DNA of 64,000 nucleotides from a virus, in the IMG/VR virus record IMGVR_UViG_3300037245_003639. One strand, written 5' to 3'. The translations under genes and the position numbers were made by a program. A model generated the notes under the pieces. The model did not search any database. It was not told where the DNA came from and saw nothing but the letters and a program-made list of their open reading frames with translations. Below, piece after piece: positions 7,672-61,969 of this stretch (positions are counted from its first letter, which is position 1; each line of letters begins with the position of its first letter).

Positions 7672-8019
7672 TCACTTCGGCTCTGCTCCATACATCCGAA
7701 AATATTTGAACTTCCGTGGCCACTCGTATCTCGGACAAAATGCTATCGCAACCTCTTCGTTGCCATAGTTCCCTTCACGTATGACAACATGATCTTCGAG
7801 TTTCTTGGCAGCCTCGAAATCCTTGTCGCTTACGGCGCAGACCACTTTGAAAAAAGGGCCTAAAATCCAGTCCAACATCCAATCCTTATGTTGGAACTTG
7901 CGAAAACAAGCAATCGATGCATGAGCCACGTTGACGATGGCCACCCCGAGCGGAATAGTTTCCCGCACCAGGATATACATCTTCAGTTTATCGTCTCTTA
8001 TCAACTTAGCCATATTCAC
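7672..8019 (-). CDS. pth2: peptidyl-tRNA hydrolase, PTH2 family
   Basis: KMYILVRETIPLGVAIVNVAHASIACF, KVVCAVSDKDFEAAKKL and EEVAIAFCP match the PTH2 core (compare human PTRH2 [26 protein letters not shown]). Confidence 0.6.
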   Translation of the reverse strand: MNMAKLIRDDKLKMYILVRETIPLGVAIVNVAHASIACFRKFQHKDWMLDWILGPFFKVVCAVSDKDFEAAKKLEDHVVIREGNYGNEEVAIAFCPRYEWPRKFKYFRMYGAEPK

Positions 8020-8294
8020 ACTCTACTCGATATGGCTCTCGCTGTCAACAAAAATAGCCCCCAAGCCAGATTGTGGCTTGAGGGCCTTCGCAGTTTCGAC
8101 TTATCTAAATACCGCGAGCGTTCCTCAAGCCAAGCTGTGCTTGGTAAAGCGTATAAAGCTTTGTTTCTTGAGACAACGCATCGATTCATTCCTCTTCCCG
8201 CCCATATAGAGCGGGCAACCTGCATTACTACAGGGGAGTTGTACCGCATTATACGTCGAATGTCAAGGAATTCCTCTGAAATTTCTGATAATCT

Positions 8295-9323
8295 TTAGTC
8301 CAAGGATTCCAGGAATTCCAGATGGTCGTCAATGGATTCGGGTTTTATCCACATATCGTAATCAGATTTATCCTTCATCCACGGTTCTTCATCTTTTACA
8401 CCATGAATGAGTTCCCGAATCTCGTCTGTGAAATCCAGCCGAATATATTTTTGAACAGGATCGTAAGAAACAACTCTGAGAACCACTCCTTCTTTAATGC
8501 TGTTGAAGAAGGTGCCGGTAAACATGTGAGGAACTTTCTCTGAAATTTGAGCAAAGAACGGCCCAGGGAAAAACTTGATCGGTTTTTTCACTTTGACAAG
8601 CGGGAATCGTTCCTTGTGGGCCATAGTCCACGTTAGCATGCGATTCTCTCGTTCTCGATGTTTCTTTTCAAAGTCCAAAGCGGCTTTCTTCCATTCTGTC
8701 TTGCTTTGATTGCCGGTCATACGAGTGTGATAAGCCCCCAAGATGAAACGCATACGCTTCTTGGACATGTTTTTGGCCTGTTCGACAGAGATGGTATCAG
8801 CGAAACGTTGATTGAAAACTTCGGTCATGTCATCCCATTTTTCCATGAACATCAAAGCGTTATCTCGTTCAAACCGAAACCAGTTGCTCTCTCGTTCTGT
8901 TTCCGCAAGTTCTTGCTCAATCCAACTTTCATCACGAGGGTCAAAGCCAATTTTCTGAATGAGACTTTCTAAGTTGTCTTGGGATTGTTGTGCCATTTCT
9001 TTCAGCCTTTTGTCTTTGATCTTAAGGGGGACTTCGTATCCCAATTCATGAGCGACTTCCAGAGCCTTTAATTGCACAGAAATCAAATCATATTGGAAAC
9101 GTTGTAGATTCTCAGGAGAACGAATATCATCAGGCAGAATCCAAAAGCATTCCAGTCCTGATAGTTCATTGTCTTGACATTCGAAGATAGGTATGTTTAC
9201 TATTGTTTCCCCTATTGGGGTTCGTTCGTATCTTAGGAATGTTGCTTTATCTTCTGTGAATCCTATCTCGCTATTGTAAACTATCAAAACTTCTTGTTTT
9301 GGTTCAAGTTTTCGTCTACTCAT
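8295..9323 (-). CDS. hypothetical protein
   Basis: 342-aa ORF, charged with coiled-coil-like segments. Confidence 0.5.
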   Translation of the reverse strand: MSRRKLEPKQEVLIVYNSEIGFTEDKATFLRYERTPIGETIVNIPIFECQDNELSGLECFWILPDDIRSPENLQRFQYDLISVQLKALEVAHELGYEVPLKIKDKRLKEMAQQSQDNLESLIQKIGFDPRDESWIEQELAETERESNWFRFERDNALMFMEKWDDMTEVFNQRFADTISVEQAKNMSKKRMRFILGAYHTRMTGNQSKTEWKKAALDFEKKHRERENRMLTWTMAHKERFPLVKVKKPIKFFPGPFFAQISEKVPHMFTGTFFNSIKEGVVLRVVSYDPVQKYIRLDFTDEIRELIHGVKDEEPWMKDKSDYDMWIKPESIDDHLEFLESLD

Positions 9324-9341
9324 TAAACATTATACCGCCGA

Positions 9342-9764
9342 TTACTCAATATCTTCTGTGACTAGCGCCAATTCTGCCATATATTCTTCGACAGCAGTGA
9401 TTAAATCTTCCAGAGAGTAAACGACTGGGACACCATGATATTCGCAATAACGTTCAATCTTTTCTTTACCTTTGACGGCTCCTTCTAAGCACATAACAAC
9501 TTGACCACCGCGACCCACGGCATCTCCAAATTCTAACAGTGTGGAATGTCCTTTCCATTCAGAATTCAAATAGAAAACGATAACAGCACATTTTTCTTGC
9601 ATAACTTGCAGTTGACGGGCAGTCTCGTTTGCTCGTTGGTCTTCGTCGAATTCATCGTATCCATCCACGATGGGATCAAAGACGGCGATGTCCTGTGAGA
9701 TTTCGTTTTTCAGTTTAGTGCGCCACGACATATCGGACAACCCACCAAGATATACGTCCCACAT
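9342..9764 (-). CDS. nucleoside 2-deoxyribosyltransferase-like protein
   Basis: N-terminal VYLGG...FDP plus a conserved acidic residue, as in the NDT/DNPH1 family. Confidence 0.4.
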   Translation of the reverse strand: MWDVYLGGLSDMSWRTKLKNEISQDIAVFDPIVDGYDEFDEDQRANETARQLQVMQEKCAVIVFYLNSEWKGHSTLLEFGDAVGRGGQVVMCLEGAVKGKEKIERYCEYHGVPVVYSLEDLITAVEEYMAELALVTEDIE

Positions 9765-9791
9765 CTCGTTCTCCTTTATAATGGATTTGAA

Positions 9792-9977
9792 TTAATTGTC
9801 CTTATCAGTTTTTGGTTTGTTTTTCCTTTGTTTCGGTTTTTTGATGAAGTGCGTACATAAAGGGCATCTTGCAGATAGGTGCTTCTCTGGTTCCAGTGCA
9901 TCATAATAATCACATAGCTGATCTGGAACCACTTCAAGCTGGCGCAATTCACAATACCCTTTGGTTGGCGACGGCAT
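9792..9977 (-). CDS. small zinc-ribbon protein
   Basis: 61 aa with CELRQ...CPLC. Confidence 0.25.
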   Translation of the reverse strand: MPSPTKGYCELRQLEVVPDQLCDYYDALEPEKHLSARCPLCTHFIKKPKQRKNKPKTDKDN

Positions 9978-10065
9978 TTACTCCTCCTTCCTCTATTCAA
10001 CCAACTGCCCGTGGCATCCTGCTCTGGATCGAGTCAAAATATTTCCGAGAAAAAAGAAAGGAATT

Positions 10066-10090
10066 GCTTGACATCTCTCGTATAATGGCA
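10066..10090 (+). promoter_or_regulatory. compact promoter-like motif GCTTGACATCTCTCGTATAATGG
   Basis: TTGACA and TATAAT hexamers only 7 nt apart; a near-identical 24-mer recurs at 21194. Confidence 0.45.
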
Positions 10091-10091
10091 T

Positions 10092-10293
10092 ATCTTTCTC
10101 GTGTCTCGTCGCGGTGGCGGGATACATGGAGAAGTAACGATGCTTTTGAATTCGTCCCACAACTCGTCAGCGGTTCACATCGCAGACAACGTGCGCATTA
10201 GCGTAGCCGCTAATTCCACGTAAGGTTGCAGGGCGAAATAAGGATTTTCGAGCCCTGCAACCCTAATCGGGAAGCAGGGCTTTTTTATTGGCA
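10092..10293 (+). ncRNA. putative small RNA or tRNA-array leader (paralog A)
   Basis: About 200 nt without an ORF between the promoter motif and the terminator AGCCCTGCAACC..GCAGGGCTTTTTT (10251..10287), with internal TTGCAGGGC/GCCCTGCAA hairpins. Confidence 0.35.
10251..10290 (+). terminator. intrinsic terminator
   Basis: GC-rich stem GCCCTGC..GCAGGGC followed by TTTTTTATT. Confidence 0.55.
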
Positions 10294-10319
10294 GATCGAT
10301 GTCGTAAAAGCTAAAATCA

Positions 10320-10391
10320 GGGCGCGTAGTTTAGAGGAAGAATGCTTCGTTTACACCGAAGAGGTCGCTGGTTCGAATCCAGCCGTGCCCA
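10320..10391 (+). tRNA. tRNA-Val(TAC)
   Basis: GGGCGCG...CTTCG TTTACAC CGAAG...GCTGGTTCGAATCCAGCCGTGCCCA. Confidence 0.7.
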
Positions 10392-10563
10392 GTATATAGC
10401 CTTATCTAGCACGGATGTAAAAGAATGTGGAATTACCTGAATAGACTATCTGACATTGATGAAGGGCAAGCCTGGAGATTGTTGTGTGTGTTGTCGTTTG
10501 TCACAGGGATGGTCGCATGTAACTCTCTGTGGTTATTAGTCCTTTGATCCTGGGTGGGTTTTA

Positions 10564-10625
10564 GGGTGCGTGGCTCAGCTCGTGCTTGGCCGAAAAGATC
10601 GTGGGTTCGAATCCCACCTCGCCCA
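10564..10625 (+). pseudogene. truncated tRNA-like element (about 62 nt)
   Basis: Acceptor GGGTGCG/CTCGCCC and T arm GTGGGTTCGAATCCCAC are present, but only about 30 nt lie between them, so the D and anticodon arms are incomplete. Confidence 0.4.
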
Positions 10626-10636
10626 TTAGTGAAACA

Positions 10637-10849
10637 ATGAAACGCAGAATTGAAGTCCGAAAGAAACCTGATGGCAGTGTGGATGAAGTCCTGCTTTACA
10701 TCGATGACGAGTGCGTAATGCACCTGGAGTACATGGACGACAATAAGATTTGGATTGGTCTGTATGACGGCAGAGACTATCCCACTCACGTAAGAATGGG
10801 AAGCGCCAAGCCAATCCAGACTGTGGTTGAAGACGGAAACGAAGAATGA
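10637..10849 (+). CDS. hypothetical protein
   Basis: Start trimmed to MKRRIEV downstream of the tRNA-like element. Confidence 0.4.
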   Translation: MKRRIEVRKKPDGSVDEVLLYIDDECVMHLEYMDDNKIWIGLYDGRDYPTHVRMGSAKPIQTVVEDGNEE

Positions 10850-11043
10850 AAATCGGTGATACAGTTTACGTCTTGGCAAAGGAAGACGGAACGATACTTG
10901 GCGACGGTGATGGGTTGGTGATGTCCGAAGTCGAGTTGATTGTTAAAAATGAGCTTGCTCTTAATGATAAATATTTAGGAGCCCTCAATCAATGTGATAT
11001 GTCAGAAGTCACAGTGGAGACAGTGATACTGACAAAAGTTTGA
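10846..11043 (+). CDS. hypothetical protein
   Basis: 65 aa, coupled to the upstream gene through an ATGA overlap. Confidence 0.35.
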   Translation: MKIGDTVYVLAKEDGTILGDGDGLVMSEVELIVKNELALNDKYLGALNQCDMSEVTVETVILTKV

Positions 11044-11049
11044 TCTAGA

Positions 11050-11121
11050 TCCGAGGTAGCACAACGGTAGTGCGTCGCACTGTTAATGCGATGGTTGCTG
11101 GTTCGAATCCAGCCCTCGGAG
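11050..11121 (+). tRNA. tRNA-Asn(GTT)
   Basis: TCCGAGGTAGCACAACGGTAGTGC TCGCA CTGTTAA TGCGA...GCTGGTTCGAATCCAGCCCTCGGAG. Confidence 0.7.
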
Positions 11122-11135
11122 TTTGAGAGTCGATC

Positions 11136-11209
11136 TCATCGGTAGCTCAGTTGGCCAGAGCACTTGGCTGTTAACCAGGGTGTCGCGGGTTCGAATCCCG
11201 TCCGGTGAG
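11136..11209 (+). tRNA. tRNA-Asn(GTT), second copy
   Basis: TCATCGGTAGCTCAGTTGGCCAGAGC CTTGG CTGTTAA CCAGG...GCGGGTTCGAATCCCGTCCGGTGAG. Confidence 0.6.
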
Positions 11210-11355
11210 CTTCACCCGAAAGGGTGCGAAGAGATCTTTGATAACTTAAAAGCGACGTTTTGTTTTGGCTGCGGCAGACCACAACCAGAAGGTATAATGG
11301 ACTGCCAATGCGAAAATGACGAATAACGGAAGCGACCACCTATCGCTTCCGCTAA

Positions 11356-11429
11356 GGGCGTTTGGCTCAGTTGGTTAGAGCGCATCCTTCACACGGATGA
11401 GATCACAGGTTCAAATCCTGTAACGCCCA
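11356..11429 (+). tRNA. tRNA-Val(CAC)
   Basis: GGGCGTTTGGCTCAGTTGGTTAGAGC CATCC TTCACAC GGATG...ACAGGTTCAAATCCTGTAACGCCCA. Confidence 0.75.
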
Positions 11430-11431
11430 TT

Positions 11432-11653
11432 ATGAGAGATGCAATTGTCGAAATTCTGAAATCAGGCACGGGTTGCGGAGTAGAATTCGCTGCAATGCTG
11501 TTTGTTCATCAACTGGAAGATGGGCGGTTTCGGGTTGGTTGCGAGGGAGATCACGATGAGTGGATCTTTCATAATGCAGAAATGGCCGCTATCTGCTTCT
11601 TGAATAAAAGAAGAGAGAAAGGGCTGGGATTTGATTTTGAAACGGGCGCGTAG
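11432..11653 (+). CDS. hypothetical protein
   Basis: 73-aa ORF between tRNAs. Confidence 0.35.
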   Translation: MRDAIVEILKSGTGCGVEFAAMLFVHQLEDGRFRVGCEGDHDEWIFHNAEMAAICFLNKRREKGLGFDFETGA

Positions 11654-11717
11654 CGCAGTTGGTTAGCGCACTTCGGTGACATCGAAGGGGTCGTGAGTTC
11701 AAGTCTCACCGTGCCCA
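11644..11717 (+). tRNA. tRNA-Val(GAC)
   Basis: GGGCGCGTAGCGCAGTTGGTTAGCGC CTTCG GTGACAT CGAAG...GTGAGTTCAAGTCTCACCGTGCCCA. Confidence 0.75.
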
Positions 11718-11929
11718 TTACGACATACCTTCACGCTAGTTGCTATGCAGCAAGCCGGAGGCAGCGGTCCTGGCGGGTGAACCTAACCTGTTACTCTACC
11801 GTCAGGTAAGATTACATCATGGAGTAAGGGACTGGTAACAGAGACGCCTTATTATCATGGTGCCGCTATGAAAGTCGTAACTTTTGCCGAGTGGTCTTAC
11901 CCTGAGCCCGACAGACTGCTTGGCAATTT

Positions 11930-12003
11930 GGGAGCGTAGCTCAGTTGGTTAGAGCAATTCGCTGATAACGAATAGGTCAGTGGTTCGACTCCACTCGTTC
12001 CCA
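11930..12003 (+). tRNA. tRNA-Ile(GAT)
   Basis: GGGAGCGTAGCTCAGTTGGTTAGAGC ATTCG CTGATAA CGAAT...AGTGGTTCGACTCCACTCGTTCCCA. Confidence 0.75.
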
Positions 12004-12173
12004 TTTTATCTGCATTTTCCTTGACAAAAGAACGATGACCAACCTGGCTTGGCAACGAGTATTTGAGGAAATGCGGAAATGCGTTCTTACTTGTTGTCGA
12101 TGTCACAGAGAAATTGAGTACAGGATAATTCCCGCAAAGAAAGTCACAGCCGTTTATCGCGAAAGGCAGATCG

Positions 12174-12479
12174 ATGAAACTGATGGTTGAATTAGAAGGA
12201 ACGGGATTTCCTCCTCCTTCGTCATTTGATGGACTTGAATTTGAACAGCGCAACATAAAAGAAAAACGAGATGGAAAACCAGATGGAGGGTTTTCGTTTG
12301 TCGGTTATGTCGTAATTTCTCTCGGGAGCGCTGCAAGCGGTGTAATAGGCAATTACATCTTTGCCTGGTTGAGAAGTCCAGGAGCAAAAGTGATGAGTCT
12401 CAAAATTGAAGGGGAGCGCATAAACCCTGATGATGTAGACGCCATAGCTGACGCAGTAAAAAAGAGACTCACACAGTAA
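12174..12479 (+). CDS. hypothetical protein
   Basis: 101 aa with a Gly-rich hydrophobic segment; sits between a complete tRNA-Ile and a tRNA 3' fragment. Confidence 0.4.
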   Translation: MKLMVELEGTGFPPPSSFDGLEFEQRNIKEKRDGKPDGGFSFVGYVVISLGSAASGVIGNYIFAWLRSPGAKVMSLKIEGERINPDDVDAIADAVKKRLTQ

Positions 12480-12486
12480 GGATGAA

Positions 12487-12514
12487 GTCGTTGGTTCGAC
12501 TCCAACCGTTCCCA
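12487..12514 (+). repeat. tRNA 3' fragment (T arm + acceptor), paralogous to the tRNA-Ile 3' end
   Basis: GTCGTTGGTTCGACTCCAACCGTTCCCA versus GTCAGTGGTTCGACTCCACTCGTTCCCA in tRNA-Ile, with compensatory changes in the T stem. Confidence 0.5.
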
Positions 12515-12621
12515 TTCGAGGTGAAAGATGTCTGGATGGTGGTATGTAGGAATCGCGCTGGTGGTAGTTGTAGCCCTGGTAGCTAAATGGCTATGGAACC
12601 AAATCATCAGCATCGATTAGA

Positions 12622-12693
12622 TGGCTCGTGGTCTACTGGTTACGACGCTTCCCTGATAAGGAAGAGAAGATGGTTCAATTCCATTCGAGCCAA
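12622..12693 (+). tRNA. tRNA-Ile(GAT)-like, second copy
   Basis: TGGCTCG...CTTCC CTGATAA GGAAG...GATGGTTCAATTCCATTCGAGCCAA, with a T1-A72 first pair. Confidence 0.5.
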
Positions 12694-12695
12694 TT

Positions 12696-12857
12696 TGACA
12701 GGTGGTCTAATACCGCAAGGACATGTGAGACATGCAAAAGCAGCTATCTTGGATAGGTGTCCCGTAAAATTCTAGATCTCGATACGGGTGAATCGCTCTT
12801 GCTGGGGAAAGATGGCATCTACCGGTGTCGATGTGGGTTCGAATCCCATCCTGTCAT
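12696..12857 (+). pseudogene. tRNA-like with about 80-nt internal insertion (disrupted or intron-bearing)
   Basis: 5' TGACAGGTGGTCTAATACC... and 3' ...GTGGGTTCGAATCCCATCCTGTCA halves pair as an acceptor stem but lie about 160 nt apart. Confidence 0.25.
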
Positions 12858-12860
12858 TTT

Positions 12861-12933
12861 GGGGCAGTAGCTCAGTTGGGAGAGCGCCGTCTTCGCAAGG
12901 CGGAGGTTGCGGGTTCGAATCCCGTCTGCTCCA
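12861..12933 (+). tRNA. tRNA-Ala(CGC)
   Basis: GGGGCAGTAGCTCAGTTGGGAGAGC CCGTC TTCGCAA GGCGG...GCGGGTTCGAATCCCGTCTGCTCCA, with the G3:U70 Ala identity pair. Confidence 0.75.
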
Positions 12934-12935
12934 TT

Positions 12936-13100
12936 GGGTCGGTGGCTTAATTGGTAGAGCGTGCCGTGCAGAAAGGCAAGTCGGTCATAGATGCCTAAGC
13001 CCAGGGTTAAAAGTGTATCTTAGGTGTACCCGACATGACTGGAGAACAGTCTTTAGGCAGACCTGTGGCAAGAGTATGGGTTCGAATCCCGTCCGATCCA
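12936..13100 (+). tRNA. tRNA-Ala-like with about 90-nt insertion (putative intron)
   Basis: Acceptor GGGTCGG/CCGATCC with G3:U70, D arm TGGCTTAATTGGTAGAGC and T arm ATGGGTTCGAATCCCGT are all present, but the anticodon region is interrupted by about 90 extra nt. Confidence 0.35.
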
Positions 13101-13104
13101 TTAG

Positions 13105-13311
13105 GTGAATGAAATGGTTGTATATTGCGATTGTCCGTGCCATAAACCAGGAGCGACAATACTTCACTTTGATGCCTGCTGTAGTCTTTGTCCAAAATGT
13201 GGCAAGGGTATTGTTCGTGGTTTCAAGGAACATTTTGGAACCTGCACGGGTGAGTTGCTTAACAAAGTGAAACGAAAGAGAAGGCAAAAACCAGAACCGC
13301 CTTGGGTATAA
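13105..13311 (+). CDS. Cys-rich small protein
   Basis: 68 aa with CDCPCH...CSLCPKCG. Confidence 0.4.
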   Translation: MNEMVVYCDCPCHKPGATILHFDACCSLCPKCGKGIVRGFKEHFGTCTGELLNKVKRKRRQKPEPPWV

Positions 13312-13315
13312 ATTT

Positions 13316-13388
<73 letters not shown>

Positions 13389-13390
13389 TT

Positions 13391-13672
13391 ATGAAAGAGA
13401 AAACCCTGACAGAAGTATGGACGGAATTAGACCACTGGATTTACATGCATCAAGATGGCGGCATAGTATATGACAATCACGCTCAGAATTCGTTTGAGCA
13501 AGCCGGTGGAGATTTCGATACGCTGATACTGGCTATTGAAGATCATATTGTGCAAGATGACGATGACAAGGAAGTTATAGATTGGCCGTCTGTCGAAACA
13601 ACGTATGAGCATATGGTTCAACAACCTGAGTGGACCGACAAGGATTGGAAATTCAATCCTGATTGGTTTTGA
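13391..13672 (+). CDS. hypothetical acidic protein
   Basis: Start trimmed to MKEKTLTEVW after the tRNA. Confidence 0.4.
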   Translation: MKEKTLTEVWTELDHWIYMHQDGGIVYDNHAQNSFEQAGGDFDTLILAIEDHIVQDDDDKEVIDWPSVETTYEHMVQQPEWTDKDWKFNPDWF

Positions 13673-13676
13673 GTTT

Positions 13677-13748
13677 GGGGCAGTAGCTCAATGGGAGAGC
13701 ATCGCGTTTGCAACGCGGAGGTTGAGGGTTCGAATCCCTTCTGCTCCA
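13677..13748 (+). tRNA. tRNA-Ala(TGC)
   Basis: GGGGCAGTAGCTCAATGGGAGAGC TCGCG TTTGCAA CGCGG...GAGGGTTCGAATCCCTTCTGCTCCA, with G3:U70. Confidence 0.75.
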
Positions 13749-13761
13749 TTAGGAGATTGAG

Positions 13762-13995
13762 ATGATTTTAGGACGCAATCCTAATCCTGGCCGCGTTTTA
13801 ATGGACATCGCTGATGATGCTGAATTGCGAGGTTTCCTTGATGCTGGGCGGATTCGACATGCTCAGCGAACGGGCAACTGGCCTGAGCATTTGAAACCTG
13901 GTCGGCTTATCATGCGGCTGCCAGAAGATGTTCGTAATATTCTAAAACAACTGCGGTCGAGTGACTTGACAAAGGCTCGGTATCCGTTACACTGA
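13762..13995 (+). CDS. hypothetical protein
   Basis: 77-aa ORF. Confidence 0.35.
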   Translation: MILGRNPNPGRVLMDIADDAELRGFLDAGRIRHAQRTGNWPEHLKPGRLIMRLPEDVRNILKQLRSSDLTKARYPLH

Positions 13996-14003
13996 AATAG
14001 ATT

Positions 14004-14094
14004 GGATAGGCTGGATTCCCATTGGTGCGGGACACTTGATTGCTAATCAAGGGATCGTTTCGGCGGTTTAAGAGTTCGAATCTCTTCCTATCCG
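14004..14094 (+). tRNA. tRNA-Ser(GCT)
   Basis: Class II tRNA: GGATAGG...CTTGA TTGCTAA TCAAG, long variable arm, AAGAGTTCGAATCTCTTCCTATCCG. Confidence 0.65.
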
Positions 14095-14096
14095 TT

Positions 14097-14702
14097 ATGG
14101 TGATAATCGAGGTCCATAGTGCTCAGTCGATATTGACGGCTTCGCCGCAAGTCCCGCACGTCATCATTTCGATATCAGACAAGCCCGAGAGTTTGCCTGA
14201 TATCCAACAGAATGAGCACTGCAAGGGACTGTTACAACTCTGCTTTCACGATGTAGACAAAGACTTTCGGAGATTCAAAACGATTTCCGATGAGCAGGCT
14301 CAGGAAGCAGTGGATTTCATTCAGTCTCATATCGGGATTGACCTAATCATCTGCCAATGCGATGCTGGGATCAGCCGTAGTTCTGGAATGGCGGCAGCGA
14401 TAGCCAAGGCATTCAACGGTGATGATGAGCAATTTTTCAGACGATACATGCCAAACACAGCAGTGTATCGAAAAGTATTGGTAAAGCTTCAGGAGATTAC
14501 AATGTCTGGGTGTAAGCACAATTGGATCGTTTACTCCACGGCGGTTGTAGATGCCACAATCCTTGTAGAATGCAGCAAATGCAAGGAACGTGGTGGAATC
14601 CTCCGAAAGGATTCTACCGAGCAGGATTGGAAAGATGCATTCACTGCACCTTCCGATCCGTATCCACTGAGGGAAGATCTTTATCCCTTTGTGCAAACTT
14701 AG
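14097..14702 (+). CDS. dual-specificity/tyrosine phosphatase-like protein with C-terminal zinc ribbon
   Basis: CX5R active-site signature CDAGISRS (HC-x-AG-xx-RS pattern); C-terminal CKHNW...CSKCKERGG. Confidence 0.45.
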   Translation: MVIIEVHSAQSILTASPQVPHVIISISDKPESLPDIQQNEHCKGLLQLCFHDVDKDFRRFKTISDEQAQEAVDFIQSHIGIDLIICQCDAGISRSSGMAAAIAKAFNGDDEQFFRRYMPNTAVYRKVLVKLQEITMSGCKHNWIVYSTAVVDATILVECSKCKERGGILRKDSTEQDWKDAFTAPSDPYPLREDLYPFVQT

Positions 14703-14791
14703 GATGGACTAGCCGACAGTTGGCGACGGCACCGGATTTGAAATTCGGCGAGGCTTCACCGCCCTTGTGGGTTCGACCCCCACTCCATCCG
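14702..14791 (+). tRNA. tRNA-Ser(TGA)
   Basis: GGATGGA...CCGGA TTTGAAA TTCGG, long variable arm, GTGGGTTCGACCCCCACTCCATCCG. Confidence 0.65.
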
Positions 14792-14825
14792 TTACAAAAG
14801 GCCGAAGCATTTGGATGGATTTGTT

Positions 14826-15269
14826 ATGATAAATGAACTACTAATCGCATTGGGCCGCATCGCAGAGCTTCCAGACAACTGTGGCGGAGGTTGCGGACAA
14901 GGTTGTTGTGGTTGCATCGGTAGAGCAATCGCAATTGCTCAAATTGAACTGGATAAACCCGATAGAGAAGTTGAAGCTCCACCTCAACCTGTTTGGAAAT
15001 GTCTAATTTGCGAACAGGTAGTTGAAGTAGAACATCCAGGTGATGACTCTAAAGCTTGCTGGCCCAACGTTGTTGGTGGTCATGTCGAAGTGACTTTTGG
15101 CTATGGTAGCATTTTTGACCAGTGTCAAAACAGCGGTCGGGAGACTTACCAAGGATGCATCTGTGATGAATGTGTCAAAAAGAAAGGTAAATTACTCAGG
15201 CGAGTCAGAGGACATCGTTCTGCTCGATGGGAAATTTTGCCAAATGATTTGGACGAATGCAGAGGATAG
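14826..15269 (+). CDS. Cys-rich hypothetical protein
   Basis: Start trimmed to MINELL; contains CGGGCGQGCCGC and further cysteines. Confidence 0.4.
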   Translation: MINELLIALGRIAELPDNCGGGCGQGCCGCIGRAIAIAQIELDKPDREVEAPPQPVWKCLICEQVVEVEHPGDDSKACWPNVVGGHVEVTFGYGSIFDQCQNSGRETYQGCICDECVKKKGKLLRRVRGHRSARWEILPNDLDECRG

Positions 15270-15352
15270 ACTGTCCTGATTGGTGCCAGGTGCCTGATTG
15301 GAAATCAGGTGGGGGCGCAAGCCTCCTGTCGGTTCGAATCCGACTCTATCCG
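15264..15352 (+). tRNA. tRNA-Ser(GGA)
   Basis: GGATAGA...CCTGA TTGGAAA TCAGG, long variable arm, TCGGTTCGAATCCGACTCTATCCG. Confidence 0.65.
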
Positions 15353-15367
15353 TTTGGGGAGAAAAAT

Positions 15368-15532
15368 ATGCATCATAAACGTAAGCGGGCTCGGAATTCG
15401 CGAGCCGGATGTAAGATGTGTAAATTTTGGAAAGTGAATGGATTTCGAACTGGAAGAACAGAAGGTGAAAAACATTCCGACCATGTGAGACGAAAAACAG
15501 CGAATCAAGAAGTCAAAAACGAAACGTCGTAA
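15368..15532 (+). CDS. small basic protein
   Basis: MHHKRKRARNSRAGCKMCKF..., Lys/Arg-rich. Confidence 0.3.
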   Translation: MHHKRKRARNSRAGCKMCKFWKVNGFRTGRTEGEKHSDHVRRKTANQEVKNETS

Positions 15533-15537
15533 TCCTT

Positions 15538-15624
15538 GGAGAGTAGGGGGCATTGGTGCCCAACGGGTCTCGAAAGCCCGCCCAGACCATTACGCGTCTG
15601 ACCGTTCGATTCGGTTACTCTCCG
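15538..15624 (+). tRNA. tRNA-Ser(CGA)
   Basis: GGAGAGT...CGGGT CTCGAAA GCCCG, long variable arm, CCGTTCGATTCGGTTACTCTCCG. Confidence 0.6.
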
Positions 15625-15661
15625 TTAACTAACATTTCTACTTGCATCTCCCATCAACATT

Positions 15662-16501
15662 TTGAATACTCTTTGTATGAAAGTCTGTCCAAATATTTTC
15701 GCGGAAGTGACCTATTCTAAGCAGTCGCTGATATCCAGGAAGTTCCCCCAGGATTTCGTTGGTCACATAATCAACGGGGAATGTACCGAAGTGATGGTTT
15801 CTATGCCGCCCGAGGCAGTGGATCTTGTGGTTACATCGCCTCCTTATTTTGTAAACAAGAGCTATGAAAACACTTGGACATTCGACCAATATTGTACTCT
15901 AATGCAACATGTTTTTGTTCAGTGTTTCATAATGCTCAAACCTGGCGGTTATCTCGTTATCAACTTCGGCGACTATTTCAACAAAGATAGGTTCTATGAT
16001 TGTGACGTGCCCAGCGTCTACCCCGCTACAATTAATTTCTTTGACTGGGGCCGGGATGCTGGGTTTGATTTGCAGGCTACTCGTATCTGGCGTAAACAGT
16101 TCTCACGAATGAGCATCCCATTCGTTTGCAATCATCATCCCCGTCCCGTCTTTGACTACGAACATATCTGGACCTTTCGCAAACCCGACGGGACTGGCAA
16201 AGAGTTTGTCAATGACCGCAAACTCTCTCAAAGAGGAGTCCTTGGAGATGGTTGGAGTTCTTCTGCTCAATTAGCCAACCATGAAGCAGCATTTCCGCTT
16301 GAATTGCCTTTGTGGGCAATCGATGTCTATTCAAAAGAGAAAGATGATATTGTTCTTGATCCCTTCTGTGGAATTGGGACCACTCTGATAGCTGCTTCTG
16401 AGAGAGGCAGAAAGTTTATCGGGATTGATATTAGTGAAGAACACTGTAAAGCGGCCTTTCGACGTATGAGATATTCTGATACGGGTTGGAAGAGGAAATG
16501 A
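15662..16501 (+). CDS. DNA N6-adenine/N4-cytosine methyltransferase (beta class)
   Basis: SPPY catalytic motif IV near the N-terminus and DPFCGIGTT AdoMet-binding motif I near the C-terminus, the permuted order typical of the N6_N4_Mtase family. Confidence 0.8.
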   Translation: MNTLCMKVCPNIFAEVTYSKQSLISRKFPQDFVGHIINGECTEVMVSMPPEAVDLVVTSPPYFVNKSYENTWTFDQYCTLMQHVFVQCFIMLKPGGYLVINFGDYFNKDRFYDCDVPSVYPATINFFDWGRDAGFDLQATRIWRKQFSRMSIPFVCNHHPRPVFDYEHIWTFRKPDGTGKEFVNDRKLSQRGVLGDGWSSSAQLANHEAAFPLELPLWAIDVYSKEKDDIVLDPFCGIGTTLIAASERGRKFIGIDISEEHCKAAFRRMRYSDTGWKRK

Positions 16502-16507
16502 AAAAAA

Positions 16508-16801
16508 GTGAAATCCAAAGACACTTGGACGTTGGTTTACTCGTTGGAGGAAGAAGAGTTTCCTACTTTTCAAGCAGCCGCAGAACGGATGGTGAAAAGG
16601 GTGGATATCGATATCCAAAAAGGTATGGCCTTGCAGATTTTAGAAACTGCCATCTGGATTGAGCCAATGGGAGGTGACATGCCGCCCATTATGTTTTATA
16701 CTGTCCGCGACATTGCAGGAGAGTGTGGATGGACAGATGAATGGTTATCCCGAGAGAAACCGGATGATAGAGCCCGACTTAGTTCATCTCCGGTTGAATA
16801 G
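16508..16801 (+). CDS. hypothetical protein
   Basis: 97-aa ORF. Confidence 0.4.
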   Translation: MKSKDTWTLVYSLEEEEFPTFQAAAERMVKRVDIDIQKGMALQILETAIWIEPMGGDMPPIMFYTVRDIAGECGWTDEWLSREKPDDRARLSSSPVE

Positions 16802-16994
16802 GGAGAGAGAGTGCCTGAAAATGGAAGACGAGATACGCTATCCATACCTGCGACTCACTTGAACCAGAGCAGTCTCGTGGAATGGTGCGAGAATACTATC
16901 AAAGTGCTTGAAAAAGATTGTGGGCTAGAGAACTACTGGATAGAAATAAAAGTTCATAAATTGAAAAATGCTTTCAGGATCCCGAGGAAGACTA

Positions 16995-17381
16995 ATGAAG
17001 AAACCGCAACTTGAACTTTACGCTATCCGTACCAAAGATGGTAAATGGTTTCACCGCAAAGGTTATGGAGGTATGGGGGAATCCTGGGCGGATGATTTCG
17101 AGAAAGCCCGCATCTACAACAAAATTGGGCCTGCCCGAGCCGTTGTAACTTGGTTCGCCAAGAGATGGCCTGAATATGGTGTGCCAAATCTCGTCAGACT
17201 GGTCATCAGCAAAGCAGAATTAGTGGACGAGACTGAACGAGTCGAGAAACGCAACAAAAAAGAAGCAGCGTGGAAAGCCAAGACAAACGAACGTTATGCC
17301 AAAAAAGAGCTACAAAGGGCTCAACTGGCAGTCGAACAAGCTAAAACTAAACTAAACGAACTATCCGAGACAAAAACATGA
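16995..17381 (+). CDS. hypothetical protein
   Basis: Start trimmed to MKKPQLELY; Lys-rich C-terminal helix. Confidence 0.45.
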   Translation: MKKPQLELYAIRTKDGKWFHRKGYGGMGESWADDFEKARIYNKIGPARAVVTWFAKRWPEYGVPNLVRLVISKAELVDETERVEKRNKKEAAWKAKTNERYAKKELQRAQLAVEQAKTKLNELSETKT

Positions 17382-17824
17382 AACCAAAATTCTGCGGACG
17401 CTGTGGCAACCCTTCATACACAGGAGAGCACGGAAATCGGTGTCCCGCCTGTCAGTTTGTGGCTCCTTTACAATTGACTATGGATACCACTGATAAGTTT
17501 CTGAGAATTGAACGCGATGAGCCCGTATCTTTTCAACTTCTCGGCGATCCGAAGCCAGTTCAATGTCATCATGGAGAACACTCATGGCTGGCCTACGAAA
17601 TGACAGTTCTACATGATAACAAAGAGAAAACATTACGTTTGTGCAAAATGGCAATGCAACAGTTGGTCTTACTAATCAAAACCGGTCATCCAACAAATGG
17701 GCGATATCAAATCGCTCGTTCTGGTTATGGATTACAGACTAGTTACGAGATTATCGCTCTCGATAAGATTCAAACTCCGTCACAACCGTCTATATGGTCA
17801 AAACTATTTGCTTGGATGCACTGA
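17378..17824 (+). CDS. zinc-ribbon protein
   Basis: CGRCGN...CPAC at the N-terminus. Confidence 0.45.
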   Translation: MKPKFCGRCGNPSYTGEHGNRCPACQFVAPLQLTMDTTDKFLRIERDEPVSFQLLGDPKPVQCHHGEHSWLAYEMTVLHDNKEKTLRLCKMAMQQLVLLIKTGHPTNGRYQIARSGYGLQTSYEIIALDKIQTPSQPSIWSKLFAWMH

Positions 17825-18627
17825 TGAAAATATCAATAGCACAGATCAACTGTAAAGCTGGAGACCTGCCAGCTAATCGAGAGAAGATCTTACAATACAT
17901 CATTGTCGCGGCGGACCAGGAAAGCGATCTAATTGTCTTCCCTGAAATGGCTGATACCGGTTATAGCATGAACGATGCGTCTCTTGCTGAAGACTGGCAC
18001 GATGGTCATACTTTCATGCAAGACCTTCGACTTGCGGCTGATCACCATAATATCGCAATCATCTGTGGCCTGGCCGAACGAGAGCAAAAACAACTTTACA
18101 ACAGCGTGCTGGCTATCGATAAAGATGGTCGCTTGCTACAGAAATACCGCAAGACTCATCTATTCTCTCTTGCTGGTGAAGACGAAGTCCTGACGGCTGG
18201 TGATGAGTTCATAGTGACCGCCATCAACCAGTATCAAGCCAAAGAACCGATTGTTAGGGTCGGTCTGATGATTTGTTACGATGTCCGCTTTCCAGAAATG
18301 TGTCGAAAGCTGGTTGCTGAGAAATTTGCTGACATTTTAGTTGTTGTTGCTGCTTTTCCTTTCCCAAGACTTGAACATTGGAAGACTCTCACAGCATGTA
18401 GAGCTATGGAAAATCAGGTCTTCGTAGTTGCTGCAAATAGAGTGGGAACCGACAAGGATTTAACCTTTTGCGGAAGTAGTAGTATAATCGACCCGTTTGG
18501 AACTCGAATTGTGGCGGCATCTGAAACTCACGAAATTTTGTTGACGCAGGAGATTGATTTGAATCGTATTCAGGAAGCTCGCGCCAACATGAACCTCCTC
18601 CAAGACCGCCGCACAGATCTCTACTAA
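17824..18627 (+). CDS. carbon-nitrogen hydrolase (nitrilase superfamily; omega-amidase-like)
   Basis: Catalytic Glu-Lys-Cys triad contexts FPEM, YRKTHLF and GLMICYD. Confidence 0.8.
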   Translation: MKISIAQINCKAGDLPANREKILQYIIVAADQESDLIVFPEMADTGYSMNDASLAEDWHDGHTFMQDLRLAADHHNIAIICGLAEREQKQLYNSVLAIDKDGRLLQKYRKTHLFSLAGEDEVLTAGDEFIVTAINQYQAKEPIVRVGLMICYDVRFPEMCRKLVAEKFADILVVVAAFPFPRLEHWKTLTACRAMENQVFVVAANRVGTDKDLTFCGSSSIIDPFGTRIVAASETHEILLTQEIDLNRIQEARANMNLLQDRRTDLY

Positions 18628-18637
18628 AGGAGAATAA

Positions 18638-19813: not shown

Positions 19814-19881
19814 GAAGCAATTATGAATATGACACTACGATTGGATAACGAGCGTTTGTGGCATAAACGAAAGGAACAGTT

Positions 19882-20400: not shown

Positions 20401-20498
20401 TGAAATCGCTTCCTGGCGCAGTTTAACTTTCGCGTGAAAGATGGGGCTGCCTTGGGTGCTCAGACCTTTTGGTCTAAGGCATTTGTTAGGAGAATATC

Positions 20499-21184: not shown

Positions 21185-21193
21185 CAGGAATCG

Positions 21194-21420: not shown

Positions 21421-21425
21421 TTTAT

Positions 21426-54744: not shown

Positions 54745-55836
54745 TTGAAGATGCAAGAAAGAGAATTCGCGGAGAAATACTGTATCTTTCGGTGCCGGTC
54801 TGGCTCCCATGCTTATGGTACGTCCTTGCCTACGTCCGACGTAGACACCCGGGGTGTATTTATCGCGCCCCCGTCCCATATCCTCAGTTGCGTTCATAAA
54901 ATTGAGCAGGCTGAGGACAAGGCGACCGATACCGTCATCTTCGAGCTGAAGAAATTCATGAACATGGCAGCCAACTGTAACCCGAATATCATCGAGTTGC
55001 TGTTTACTGACGAGCGAAATATACTGTTCATGCATGATACTTTCCGCCGAATCCGAGAGCATGCTCATCTATTCTTATCCAGAAAGGCGAAGCATACTTT
55101 CAGCGGATATGCTATGTCTCAGTTACAGCGTATCAAAGGACATAACAAGTGGATCAACAACCCGCAGCCCGAACAAACTCCGAGCATGGCGGATTTCTGT
55201 CGGTTCATTGGTACGAATGGAGCCGTTCGTCGTGATAATATGGCCATTCGCGCTTTGTCCAAGGTTTGTTTCTTGGCAAAGACTTTTGGTGCAACCCAAT
55301 TTAGGGTTTACCATTCGCCTGAGTTTTTCGCAGAAAAAGTTGGTTTCTTCAACGAAAACGAAACTCAGCCGAAATATGTCAATATTGATGATGAAACGTT
55401 AGCTCGCAGGGCAACGTATAAGGGTTTCTTGTGGATTAACATAGACGAGTTCAAAACTCTCTACAAAGAATGGAGCCAGTATTGGGAATGGAAAAACAAT
55501 CGCAATGAAGTTCGGGCTGAGTTAGAAGCACGGCATGGTTACGATACCAAACATGCTATGCATCTTGTTCGCCTAATGCGTATGGCACAGGAAATTCTTA
55601 CCGAAGGTAAGGTTATTGTTCGTCGTCCTGATGCTGCTGAGTTGCTTCGTATTCGTGCTGGTGAATTCGATTACGAATGGCTGCTCAACTGGGCTAAAGA
55701 AATGGATGAGAAACTCAACGAAGCCGACAAGAAGTCCGAACTTCAGTTTGCTGCTGATTATGAGGGAATTGATGCTCTCTACAGGGAAACAGTTCTTCAG
55801 TATTGGAGAGAACACAAACTCCTTAACTATGCATAA
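54745..55836 (+). CDS. nucleotidyltransferase-fold protein (Pol-beta superfamily)
   Basis: RCRSGSHAYGTSLPTSDVDTRGVFIAP matches the GS-x9-13-DxD Pol-beta-type NTase motif; RBS GGAGTTGAAGATG. Confidence 0.55.
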   Translation: MKMQEREFAEKYCIFRCRSGSHAYGTSLPTSDVDTRGVFIAPPSHILSCVHKIEQAEDKATDTVIFELKKFMNMAANCNPNIIELLFTDERNILFMHDTFRRIREHAHLFLSRKAKHTFSGYAMSQLQRIKGHNKWINNPQPEQTPSMADFCRFIGTNGAVRRDNMAIRALSKVCFLAKTFGATQFRVYHSPEFFAEKVGFFNENETQPKYVNIDDETLARRATYKGFLWINIDEFKTLYKEWSQYWEWKNNRNEVRAELEARHGYDTKHAMHLVRLMRMAQEILTEGKVIVRRPDAAELLRIRAGEFDYEWLLNWAKEMDEKLNEADKKSELQFAADYEGIDALYRETVLQYWREHKLLNYA

Positions 55837-60394: not shown

Positions 60395-60465
60395 AGTCTC
60401 TTTGTAAAAGAACAAGCCCAGTGCAACTATTGCGCTGGGCTTTTCATTTAAGAGTATAATGTAAC

Positions 60466-61410
60466 ATGGGTACCGAAAACGAACATACTGAGCTTTTCGT
60501 CAAAGGAACTATCATCGGGCATCTCATTGGAGATGCATTAGGATATCCTTACGAAAATGCAGAGAACGTTCTCCAATATCAGATTGAAATGGTCAATGGT
60601 CGTCACGGAGAACTTGATGGTTCCTGGTCAATGCCTGGAGCTTTTGCTTTAGCCACAATGGCCAGCGTCAATGAGTATAACGGTCTCGATCTTGATGATG
60701 TAATGGAAAAGTTCAATGATGTCTACATTGCTGGTTATCTCACTCCCAATCAGGAATGTAAAGATCTCGGACCAACTACGACTGAAGCGATCAAAAACTA
60801 TACCAATGGAATGCCAGTAGATCGTTGCGGGGTCCGAACAGAAACAATGGATAACGATTGTCTGGCACGTATTCTGCCAGTTGGTCTATATTTTGCGTCG
60901 AGTCCAATCGACGAACTCATAGATAACGCTCATATGGTATGTCGCTTGACCCATGCTAATGCTCATTGTGAAGTCACATGTGCAGCGTATTGCATGGTAA
61001 TTCGCAATCTGCTGTTACAGCGGCCTGAGAAGGCTCTCGAATTACTCGATGATTACTATCGAACCAAAAAAATGAATGAACACATACAGGCTTTAGGTAA
61101 CTTTAATGAGTATAGAGATGTAAGAAATCCGACTGGGATCAAACACGTATTCGACAGTTTTTGGAGTGCGTGGAGTTGCCACGCTCGCAACGAACATGAT
61201 TTCGCATGTTGCGTTACAGACGCAGTATATTTAGGGAATGACACGAACACAACTGCTGCTATTGCAGGAGCAATCTCAGCGCTATCGAACGGGCTGAACG
61301 ATATCCCTTATAAGTGGTTACAAGTGCTTAGAATCAACAACGAAGTAATGGAGATTACCCAAACGTTTGTGAATTCGGTGATAGAGAGAAACCTGCAAAC
61401 AGTAGAATGA
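60466..61410 (+). CDS. ADP-ribosylglycohydrolase family protein (second copy)
   Basis: GTIIGHLIGDALGYPYE ARH signature; 314 aa; GAGTATAATG promoter box upstream. Confidence 0.7.
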   Translation: MGTENEHTELFVKGTIIGHLIGDALGYPYENAENVLQYQIEMVNGRHGELDGSWSMPGAFALATMASVNEYNGLDLDDVMEKFNDVYIAGYLTPNQECKDLGPTTTEAIKNYTNGMPVDRCGVRTETMDNDCLARILPVGLYFASSPIDELIDNAHMVCRLTHANAHCEVTCAAYCMVIRNLLLQRPEKALELLDDYYRTKKMNEHIQALGNFNEYRDVRNPTGIKHVFDSFWSAWSCHARNEHDFACCVTDAVYLGNDTNTTAAIAGAISALSNGLNDIPYKWLQVLRINNEVMEITQTFVNSVIERNLQTVE

Positions 61411-61530
61411 GTCACCTCCCTCTTCGACTCCTTTTCATTTCATCCACGGGCCTCTACAGGAGTCGAACTTTTGTGCAGGAAACTCAGCAACTTTGTAGAA
61501 CGAGTATAATGAGACTCAAGGAGGTTTGCG

Positions 61531-61740
61531 GTGAAAGGTATCGTCAAATGGTTCAGTAGAGACAAAGCCTACGGATTCATCGTCCCAGATGACGATGAAA
61601 ACAAAAAAGACATATTTGTCCACGCAAATGACATTCAGGATGAAGGCCACACACTGATTGATGGACAGCATGTGGAATTTGAAGTTGAGACTGGCTCAAA
61701 AGGCCGCAAAGCCAGTAGTGTAAAAGTTGTCCCTAATTAA
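61531..61740 (+). CDS. cspA: cold-shock protein (CspA family)
   Basis: GIVKWFSRDKAYGFI (RNP1-like) and VFVHANDI (RNP2-like); 69 aa; GTG start with RBS AAGGAGG. Confidence 0.8.
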   Translation: MKGIVKWFSRDKAYGFIVPDDDENKKDIFVHANDIQDEGHTLIDGQHVEFEVETGSKGRKASSVKVVPN

Positions 61741-61753
61741 GAGAGAAAGAAAC

Positions 61754-61969
61754 ATGATTCGAGTAAGAGTGGATGGAGATGGAGATAGAGATATAAGCAT
61801 TGCACTCCGCAAGTTGAAAAAGCTTATCGAAAAAGACGGCTTGATGAAGGAAATCAAGAAGCACGAATACTACGAAAAACCGTCTGAAAAACGGCGACGG
61901 GCAGCAGTACGTCGCCTGAAAATGATTCGTAAAGCTCAGGAAGAAGCCCGAGAAAAACAAGGTTTCTAA
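61754..61969 (+). CDS. rpsU: ribosomal protein bS21 homolog
   Basis: IRVRVDGDGDRDISIALRKLKKLIEKDGLMKEIKKHEYYEKPSEKRRRAAVRRLKMIRK parallels bacterial S21 ([56 protein letters not shown]). Confidence 0.65.
   Translation: MIRVRVDGDGDRDISIALRKLKKLIEKDGLMKEIKKHEYYEKPSEKRRRAAVRRLKMIRKAQEEAREKQGF

Follow-up and report, generated by a model that had tools for sequence, protein, structure and literature searches.

The 64,000-nucleotide stretch of viral DNA considered here, referred to below as the window, comes from the IMG/VR record IMGVR_UViG_3300037245_003639, has a G+C content of 46.7%, and carries a large tRNA island together with several protein genes related to translation, among which a very small gene of the alanyl-tRNA synthetase (AlaRS) type is the main subject. 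The mechanical open reading frame (ORF) call for this gene covers positions 34112-34876 on the plus strand, and the ORF matches the Pfam family PF01411 (tRNA-synt_2c) at 67.9 bits against a cut-off of 30.3. A preliminary description of the window, made from the letters alone, had listed the gene, with no coordinates, as an AlaRS catalytic fragment. The catalytic core stands, while the word fragment does not, since the gene is, judged from sequence comparison, a complete member of a conserved family of about 290 amino acids, termed mini-AlaRS here. The conserved coding sequence extends upstream to about 33998, and the extended translation has more than 500 homologs, most of which, among the matches listed, are 254-320 amino acids long and 52-83% identical. 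Members of the family are found in huge phages and in contigs of Planctomycetota metagenome-assembled genomes (MAGs). The gene appears to encode a very small, conserved AlaRS-type enzyme whose expression would hinge on -1 recoding at a conserved site that contains an alanine codon.

The extended gene lacks a start codon of its own. In the AlaRS frame, a TGA at 33995-33997 is followed by no ATG, GTG or TTG until Met39 at 34112, and the 38 codons upstream of this first Met are conserved with synonymous changes, encoding a stretch that is modelled as a helix (predicted local distance difference test, pLDDT, 80-84). A start is available in another frame. The Shine-Dalgarno (SD) sequence GGAGGA at 33977..33982 (plus strand), conserved as GGAGGATAA and then followed by a TAA in the AlaRS frame, leads a seven-codon ORF at 33990..34013 (plus strand), ATG ACT GAG CGC CAA GCC CTT TAG (MTERQAL*), which, compared with the AlaRS-like ORF, lies in the +1 frame. 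Four relatives from independent assemblies show the same SD-ATG arrangement in the +1 frame, as do, more broadly, 47 of 83 distinct loci of the mini-AlaRS family; a more distant clade begins with a plain ATG and has no leader. When viral contigs were scanned with an exact DNA pattern of the window-type leader, three chance matches were all that appeared. Conserved within the leader are the ATG, which is invariant, a G-C at nucleotides (nt) 9-10, and the Ala codon that stands in frame at nt 16-18 and occurs in all four synonymous forms. From nt 9 onwards the AlaRS frame is free of stops in all 49 distinct leaders, where 6-7 with a stop would be expected, and the third frame contains stops in 24 of the 49.

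The Ala codon of the leader is preceded by a characteristic pattern. In the window, the heptamer C_CAA_GCC at 34001..34007 (plus strand) has the form X_XYZ_GCN and is the predicted site of the -1 slip, where the ribosome's A site would hold the Ala codon. In counts that ignore the relatedness of the loci, nt 12 and nt 13 are identical in 40 of 41 distinct leaders, compared with 0-20 of 41 for other adjacent pairs, all four homodinucleotides being represented. An in-frame Ala codon is present in every leader, and X_XYZ precedes it in 55 of 56 distinct leaders, compared with 28% of the Ala codons in gene bodies, which served as the control. The rule is obeyed by all four loci fetched later from other sources, none of which has a canonical start, one of them being near-identical to locus L074. 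It is also kept in leaders of another register (MRRLA, MLEA and MRDA). The leader stop sits 0-3 codons past the Ala codon in 48 of 55 leaders, and the rule holds equally in loci L009, L074, L091 and L162, where the stop has drifted 15-20 codons downstream, so that a switch dependent on the stop is ruled out in these four. When G:U pairs are allowed, the tRNA reading XYZ can re-pair on XXY at two or more of the three positions in 51 of 55 leaders.

We infer from this pattern that the ribosome would initiate at the +1-frame ATG behind the SD and read the five codons of MTERQ, whereupon its P site would hold the peptidyl-tRNA (Gln on CAA) and its A site the sixth codon, the Ala codon. Where Ala-tRNA(Ala) arrives, Ala would be decoded and translation would terminate, in the window one codon past the Ala codon. 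Where Ala-tRNA(Ala) is delayed, the peptidyl-tRNA would slip back by one base, from CAA to CCA, after which the A site would show Z-G-C (AGC here) and the AlaRS frame would be read. The mini-AlaRS ORF would accordingly run from this AGC, the first codon after the predicted slip, to its stop (34004..34876, plus strand), and the predicted N-terminus of the slipped product is MTERQ-SPLDVVQRRF.... A shortage of Ala-tRNA(Ala) should raise output, since the slip and the reading of the Ala codon would compete with each other. On balance, we lean towards the reading that the window belongs to a huge phage with dispersed translation genes and a complete mini-AlaRS that is made by a -1 slip at X_XYZ before an Ala codon.

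The same leader could also serve without any frameshift, if it were translated to its stop and the same ribosome then restarted in the AlaRS frame at or next to that stop. In most members the leader stop does sit where the plain-ATG members begin (MLDVV, MDLI, MGVV), and the 'A-x-S' extension is dispensable because the plain-ATG members do without it. Locus L087 has the classic ATGA overlap, and all eight TGA-type leaders overlap an NTG codon (ATG, GTG, TTG or CTG). However, no ATG, GTG or TTG lies within 15 nt of the stop in 30 of 47 leaders, TAG-type leaders overlap TTA, GTA, CTA or ATA, followed by GAC, GAT or GAA, and the drifted stops of L009, L074, L091 and L162 fall inside the conserved N-terminal helix region, L074 and L162 having no canonical start in the AlaRS frame. 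Restarting would, moreover, leave the X_XYZ_GCN rule unexplained, and we regard termination-reinitiation as improbable. Published work on reinitiation at non-canonical codons (PMC4648390) deals with eukaryotic ribosomes and was left aside. Very hard to credit is the view that the gene is decaying into a pseudogene, or that its translation starts solely at the internal Met at 34112: gene callers do start the closest relatives (P0001, P0009, P0024, P0029) at that Met, but the 38 upstream codons are kept with synonymous substitutions in independent assemblies, the same arrangement recurs in dozens of diverged lineages, and no SD precedes 34112. Two other positions for a frame switch were discarded. 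At the leader stop, as a shifty stop or a +2 shift, the last sense codons have by eye no potential for re-pairing, and the stop drifts where the heptamer does not. A switch at nt 9, with an Ala-tRNA reading an overlapping GCN in the -1 frame, had been hinted at by G9-C10 and by the stop-free frame and was superseded by the heptamer rule.

Several observations nevertheless weigh against a -1 slip at the heptamer. The slippery site is weak, re-pairing resting on the first base or on a G:U pair in about half of the leaders, and the leader statistics carry no correction for shared descent. No stimulator was found in the form of a conserved downstream structure: RNAfold gave a mean z of -0.28, and RNAalifold gave two invariant pairs in the leader and no covariation. 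Nor is there an SD-like sequence 10-14 nt upstream: the only SD near the slip site is that used for initiation, about 20 nt upstream, which by analogy with dnaX is too far away to stimulate a slip. C is always the first base of the leader codon that precedes the slip codon (C-N-X in the E site), usually with a G before it (33998-34007 in the window); nt 9-10 have an information content of 1.0 and 1.7 bits and, together with the Ala codon, give GC-N5-GC, likewise with no covariation. This conservation of G9-C10 is unexplained by the frameshift model. In several members (L087 with ATGA, L068, L076, L077 and L099) a canonical start overlaps the leader stop, so that reinitiation coupling also exists in the family. 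Finally, as regards the huge-phage origin of the window, no capsid or terminase gene, the hallmarks of a phage, lies inside the window itself.

Other functions considered for the leader were set aside. A riboswitch or another conserved RNA structure was rejected on the negative RNAfold and RNAalifold results, with no T-box and with only tRNAs returned by an Rfam scan. A CsrA-binding GGA hairpin in the leader (GCGGGACGC) was ruled out, being confined to one subclade. Extending the leader to another small synthetase also failed. In L005 (11510-12253) and L003 (13217 to the end), a second short class-II synthetase-like protein of about 247 amino acids (PF00587, tRNA-synt_2b) is encoded near mini-AlaRS, with a plain ATG and no leader; because this neighbouring gene has an ordinary start, the leader device is specific to the mini-AlaRS family. 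In L005, a 155-residue protein with an RF-1 domain (PF00472) is encoded directly upstream of the mini-AlaRS leader (9404-9871).

What the enzyme does has to be judged from a reduced protein. The mini-AlaRS family profile matches AlaRS sequences of the PDB at E 9e-27, over AlaRS residues ~14-361 only, and a Foldseek search with the mini-AlaRS model retrieves AlaRS catalytic fragments at probability 1.0. Of the residues involved in alanine/ATP binding, the motif-2 Arg aligns with R62, and the Asp and Gly of the AlaRS 'SVDTGMGLER' motif align with D171 and G173, all three being invariant. A complete tRNA-recognition domain, an editing domain and C-Ala are absent from the protein of about 292 residues. 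A deletion removes the GGKH loop of four residues, the Asn that reads the acceptor stem has Ser at its position in the window's protein and variable residues there across the family, and the TIGR00344 alaS equivalog scores 70.9 against a cut-off of 457. We infer that mini-AlaRS activates alanine and probably charges tRNA-Ala.

The missing parts could also mean that mini-AlaRS activates alanine without charging tRNA-Ala and hands it to another acceptor, such as a carrier protein, a small molecule or a nucleic-acid modification, as free-standing paralogs of synthetase cores do. Fragments of E. coli AlaRS of about the length covered by the alignment make the adenylate and do not charge tRNA, the GGKH loop contains Lys73, which has been reported to contact the 3' end of the tRNA, and both the variable Asn position and the wide miss of the alaS cut-off agree with such a role. 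Set against this, the (E/D)TFGI(L)PEE motif near the C-terminus resembles, by eye and without a tool alignment, the AlaRS 'DTYGFP' motif, which we take to hold the Asp that reads U70. Three tRNA-Ala genes of the phage, for the anticodons CGC (12860-12934), GGC (13315-13389) and TGC (13676-13749), all on the plus strand, have G3:U70 and A73, and an Ala-codon sensor in the leader fits best if the product is Ala-tRNA. The mini-AlaRS of Tupanvirus, furthermore, charges tRNA-Ala without the conserved Asn/Asp (PMC10036535). Transfer to another acceptor thus seems doubtful to us, and charging of tRNA-Ala remains the preferred assignment. A part for mini-AlaRS in tRNA-dependent DNA hypermodification (Mom; PMC13219725) was dropped, AlaRS being only a reagent in that paper.

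Among 185,579 species-representative genomes, the mini-AlaRS family was found in 11 MAG contigs only, 10 of which are binned as Planctomycetota. The family is not strictly confined to phages, because the copy in L162 lies among genes resembling Planctomycete chromosomal genes. In L162 (1501-3080), as also in L074, a 214-residue PF09414 ligase is encoded immediately 3' of mini-AlaRS, and this 65-kb contig bears PSCyt1/PSCyt2/PSD1 and GntR genes as well, which suggests that the mini-AlaRS/ligase pair of L162 is a chromosomal or prophage-remnant copy in a Planctomycete. Two further members lie on contigs longer than 735 kb, the size of the phage genome reported as largest: L083 (Ga0315336_1000031; 859,269 bp) and L154 (CAWAYY010000025.1; 802,945 bp). 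These are either bacterial chromosomes or very large phages.

The tRNA island extends over 1940..27594 and, according to ARAGORN, comprises 44 tRNA genes serving 15 amino acids, with none in the window for Leu, Asp, Cys, Trp or Tyr. The Rfam gathering score for tRNA is reached by 43 of the 44, which match the full model, and the Rfam scan of the window detected no family besides tRNA. Embedded in the island, on the minus strand, is the gene of a protein with the fold of peptidyl-tRNA hydrolase 2 (PTH2), of 115 amino acids (7672..8019), which the preliminary description had reported, without a strand, as an archaeo-eukaryotic-type hydrolase. The ORF is present, and the fold is confirmed at the level of structural modelling. 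The AlphaFold2 model has a pLDDT of 91.6, and its top nine Foldseek matches in the PDB are all Pth2/Bit1 structures, with template modelling (TM) scores of 0.62-0.70 and probability 1.0. A profile of the family (A2) also matches all archaeal Pth2 and human Bit1 sequences of the PDB, at E 5e-6 to 8e-3.

Sequence profiles are less generous to the PTH2-like protein. It scores 23.6 bits with PF01981 against a cut-off of 23, over profile positions 1-60 of 115 only, a borderline match to half a profile that about half of its 32 homologs carry, and the NCBIfam Pth2 equivalogs give 25.3 against 126 and 18.5 against 82. In the family alignment, H33, K58, E82, P96 and R97 are invariant. The GKGK Lys loop of characterised Pth2 enzymes, which we take to carry the catalytic Lys (Lys18 in S. 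solfataricus Pth2), is absent, with a two-residue deletion and a variable remaining position. Because this loop is lacking, hydrolase activity of the protein is uncertain from its sequence. On either side of the PTH2-like gene, the island also contains a paralogous pair of nucleoside 2-deoxyribosyltransferase-like genes (PF15891) at 6468-6983 and 9342-9764, both on the minus strand.

The compact RNA ligase of the preliminary description corresponds to an RNA-ligase-type nucleotidyltransferase of 201 amino acids (40167..40772, plus strand), which consists of the adenylyltransferase domain only and lacks an accessory C-terminal or OB domain such as those of Rnl2 and Rnl5. Its assignment is borne out by PHROG 548 ('RNA ligase'; E 7.9e-9, profile positions 29-237 of 341) and by nucleotidyltransferase motifs I, III, IV and V, which are invariant in 24 ligase sequences (K22-x-D24-G25, E86, E159-G160 and K176-x-K178). 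PF09414, named beforehand as the profile to search, is silent on the window's copy even at E<=1 and matches 18 of 24 ligase homologs, with a best E of 1.4e-9. At the level of sequence, no solved structure matches the ligase. Among the homologs listed, nearly all have a length of 198-211 amino acids, and within the phage collection homologs are restricted to XacN1, Lak phages and uncultured phages of 485-642 kb. The suggested role of the ligase in tRNA splicing finds no substrate in the window: the tRNAs are of normal length and uninterrupted, with 43 matching the full Rfam model, so that nothing hints at splicing.

In the window the ligase is followed on the plus strand by a 66-residue ORF (40769-40969), which overlaps the ligase stop by four bases, and then by an R2K ATP-grasp protein (40966-41805), which overlaps the stop of that ORF by another four. 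A conserved ligase operon was nevertheless ruled out, as the neighbours differ in Xanthomonas phage XacN1 and in the huge contigs L158 and L159, and ORF364 of XacN1 is not an R2K homolog; in the relatives examined, no conserved Pnkp or RlaP neighbour was found. Two genes that the preliminary description had not listed belong with the ligase to an RNA-repair theme, namely the RNA-ligase-associated Pol-beta nucleotidyltransferase RlaP (54745..55836, plus strand; PF10127, 81 bits) and an HAD phosphatase (35996-36685).

The remaining translation-related genes encode small RNA-binding or ribosomal proteins. The claim of a full-length CsrA holds: the 60-residue protein at 46100..46282 (plus strand) reaches 78.1 bits with PF02599 (positions 1-52 of 53) and passes both NCBIfam equivalogs, with 76.7 against 73 for NF002469 and 73.1 against 70.1 for TIGR00202. 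CsrA homologs occur in 84 deposited phage records, many of them annotated as carbon storage regulator. The protein announced as CspA, 69 residues at 61531..61740 (plus strand; GTG start, SD AAGGAGG), has the cold-shock domain (CSD; PF00313, 78.4 bits against 27, positions 1-65 of 66) but is not specifically CspA, since it misses the cut-offs for CspA/CspE (NF007679, 70.8 against 130; NF049933, 71.6 against 120). As had been described, the homolog of ribosomal protein bS21 lies directly downstream, its ATG start being 14 bases past the stop of the CSD gene; this 71-residue protein (61754..61969, plus strand) scores 50 bits with PF01165 against 27 and 47.3 with TIGR00030 against 28.95, and also matches PHROG 21469. 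In IMG/VR and among deposited phages, its relatives are weak matches only, none of them close. In L012, L016, L113, L119, L121 and L126, a CSD gene 46-48% identical to that of the window lies at most about 1.5 kb 3' of mini-AlaRS, an association that recurs in one subclade and is distinct from the CSD-S21 pair of the window.

Taken together, the six genes had been presented as an extended translation-takeover module. ORFs exist at all six positions and five of the families hold at family or superfamily level, PTH2 holding at the level of the fold only. As a unit, however, the module dissolves. Because the genes spread across 54 kb and both strands, at about 7.7, 34, 40, 46 and 61.5 kb with many unrelated genes between them, and because CspA and S21 alone are adjacent among the six, 'module' describes gene content and not a physical unit, and the genes are not one operon, machine or conserved syntenic block. 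Synteny in relatives, proposed beforehand as a check, points the same way: the neighbours of the ligase differ in all cases examined, and the flanks of 156 related mini-AlaRS loci contain the ligase three times, R2K four times (within a few kb of mini-AlaRS) and a CSD gene six times, while S21, CsrA and the PTH2-like gene were never found there.

By analogy with huge phages, for which such a model has already been published, it is plausible that S21, CsrA and CspA act on initiation and that the tRNA pool is maintained. The stronger view, in which the six genes act as a coordinated takeover, with S21, CsrA and CspA re-programming host initiation and PTH2, the ligase and AlaRS keeping up the phage tRNA pool, strikes us as questionable. 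All the families are present beside 44 tRNA genes, and a CSD gene does accompany mini-AlaRS closely in the six loci named above; yet CspA-S21 apart, there is no physical or syntenic linkage, the PTH2-like protein lacks its Lys loop, the CSD protein falls below CspA-specific cut-offs, and CsrA is common also in small temperate phages without translation genes. A model of this kind has been put forward for huge phages (PMC7162821), and PTH2 and ligase-RlaP have been proposed to act in rescue after tRNA cleavage (PMC7824862), both of which speak for the coordinated takeover.

The genome from which the window derives is most likely that of a huge phage of at least 403 kb, judging by the sequences, because its PTH2-like and ligase proteins are 100% identical to proteins on a 403,172-bp Joint Genome Institute (JGI) contig and its vault-like (MVP-like) protein has its deposited-phage relatives only in uncultured phages of 462-735 kb. 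This MVP-like protein has 876 amino acids (30573-33203, minus strand) with major-vault-protein shoulder and repeat domains (PF11978, PF17795); those relatives are 41-43% identical, and an MVP-like gene also adjoins mini-AlaRS in L003. The host is probably a Planctomycete, because of a prepilin-type protein and of the Planctomycetota binning of the AlaRS-like family loci (10 of the 11 loci in cellular genomes). The prepilin-type protein (46337-47386, plus strand), which carries an N-terminal methylation motif in a sequence beginning KGFTLIELLVVVAIIALL..., is encoded directly 3' of CsrA; it looks DUF1559-like by eye, a type that we assume to be associated with Planctomycetota, and is possibly a host-derived gene and hence a clue to the host.

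Further genes of the window concern metabolism, signalling and recombination. Genes of nitrogen and amino-acid metabolism at 17794-19813 and 50599-52044 (plus strand) encode a carbon-nitrogen hydrolase, a class I/II aminotransferase and a glutamine synthetase, and could feed amino-acid supply during infection. An ADP-ribosylglycohydrolase confirmed by profile (60466-61410, plus strand), a second ORF of this kind recognised by eye with no profile run (57395-58513, plus strand), and a protein with DUF4326 and a YAcAr SLOG domain (49874-50545, plus strand) suggest a counter-defence against ADP-ribose or nucleotide signalling. A tyrosine recombinase with Phage_integrase and SAM-like N-terminal domains (52568-53548, plus strand) could serve this genome of at least 403 kb as an integrase or in the resolution of dimers.

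As many as 67 tRNAs and 15 synthetases, as well as S21, have been described in huge phages, for which an interception of host translation has been proposed (Al-Shayeb et al. 2020, PMC7162821). Reported from jumbo phages (Iyer et al. 2021, PMC7824862) are PTH2 rather than Pth1, Rnl-type ligases that work with RlaP, HAD phosphatases and R2K ATP-grasp enzymes. Such genes, scattered along the phage genomes, have been read as serving to redirect or rescue host translation. With its scattered tRNAs, synthetase-like gene, bS21, PTH2-fold protein, ligase, RlaP and R2K, the window's gene list is another member of this published accessory repertoire, of a kind already known because the tRNAs, synthetases and S21, as well as PTH2, Rnl ligases and RlaP, have been described and CsrA is annotated in many phages. 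The window differs in its lineage and its probable host (Planctomycetota), and it contains CsrA and a CSD-S21 pair, neither of which is mentioned in the main texts of these two papers. It has been suggested that bS21 of phages gives phage mRNAs an advantage in initiation (Mizuno et al. 2019, PMC6375957; Chen et al. 2022, PMC9723584). The window's copy resembles these as a small basic S21 homolog in a large phage, and differs in directly following a CSD gene and in having no close relative in the phage collections searched. The ligase shares with T4 Rnl2 and the PF09414 ligases the invariant motifs I, III, IV and V and homologs that match PF09414, and differs from them in its length of only about 200 amino acids, its lack of a C-terminal or OB domain, and its lack of a conserved Pnkp or RlaP neighbour.

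For the mini-AlaRS leader, the nearest precedents are release factor 2 (RF2) and antizyme. In prfB, the gene of RF2, a +1 shift occurs at CUU_U with a stop codon in the A site and an SD-like stimulator 3 nt upstream. The likeness to RF2 and antizyme lies in a short zero-frame ORF after a normal start, a main frame without a start of its own, a stop close by, and a shift that competes with an A-site codon whose decoder is the product, or that depends on the product. The mini-AlaRS leader differs from RF2 in that its predicted shift is -1 instead of +1, its codon is a sense (Ala) codon instead of a stop, its slip site is X_XYZ instead of CUU_U, and no SD-like stimulator lies 3 nt upstream. Leftward (-1) frameshifting at hungry codons has been studied experimentally and matches the proposed logic. 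For sensor-type frameshifting a short zero-frame ORF suffices, and no natural example of hungry-codon frameshifting with a functional trans-frame product was known to a 2016 review (Atkins et al. 2016, PMC5009743).

The closest counterpart of the enzyme is the mini-AlaRS of Tupanvirus (TuAlaRS), the smallest described, with 461 amino acids (PMC10036535). Both are encoded by viruses, lack an editing domain and C-Ala as well as the canonical Asn/Asp readers, and lie beside tRNA-Ala genes with G3:U70. At about 290 amino acids, the phage mini-AlaRS is shorter by about 170 residues, retaining only the start of the tRNA-recognition domain and no GGKH loop. TuAlaRS is related to the enzyme of its eukaryotic host, whereas the phage protein is of bacterial type. 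An AlaRS core of about 290 residues would bear on the minimal size of an alanine-specific tRNA-charging enzyme and on the reading of G3:U70.

As a tentative further step, the mini-AlaRS leader may be regarded as the first natural hungry-codon frameshift sensor, an RF2-like circuit gating a probably tRNA-Ala-charging enzyme, the smallest AlaRS-type catalyst known, and conserved across dozens of diverged huge-phage and Planctomycete lineages. If the frameshift is true, it would explain why gene callers systematically truncate or miss members of the mini-AlaRS family, and the family would offer a sequence-defined, easily testable synthetase-like gene whose regulation works through frameshifting at a sense codon that specifies its own amino acid.

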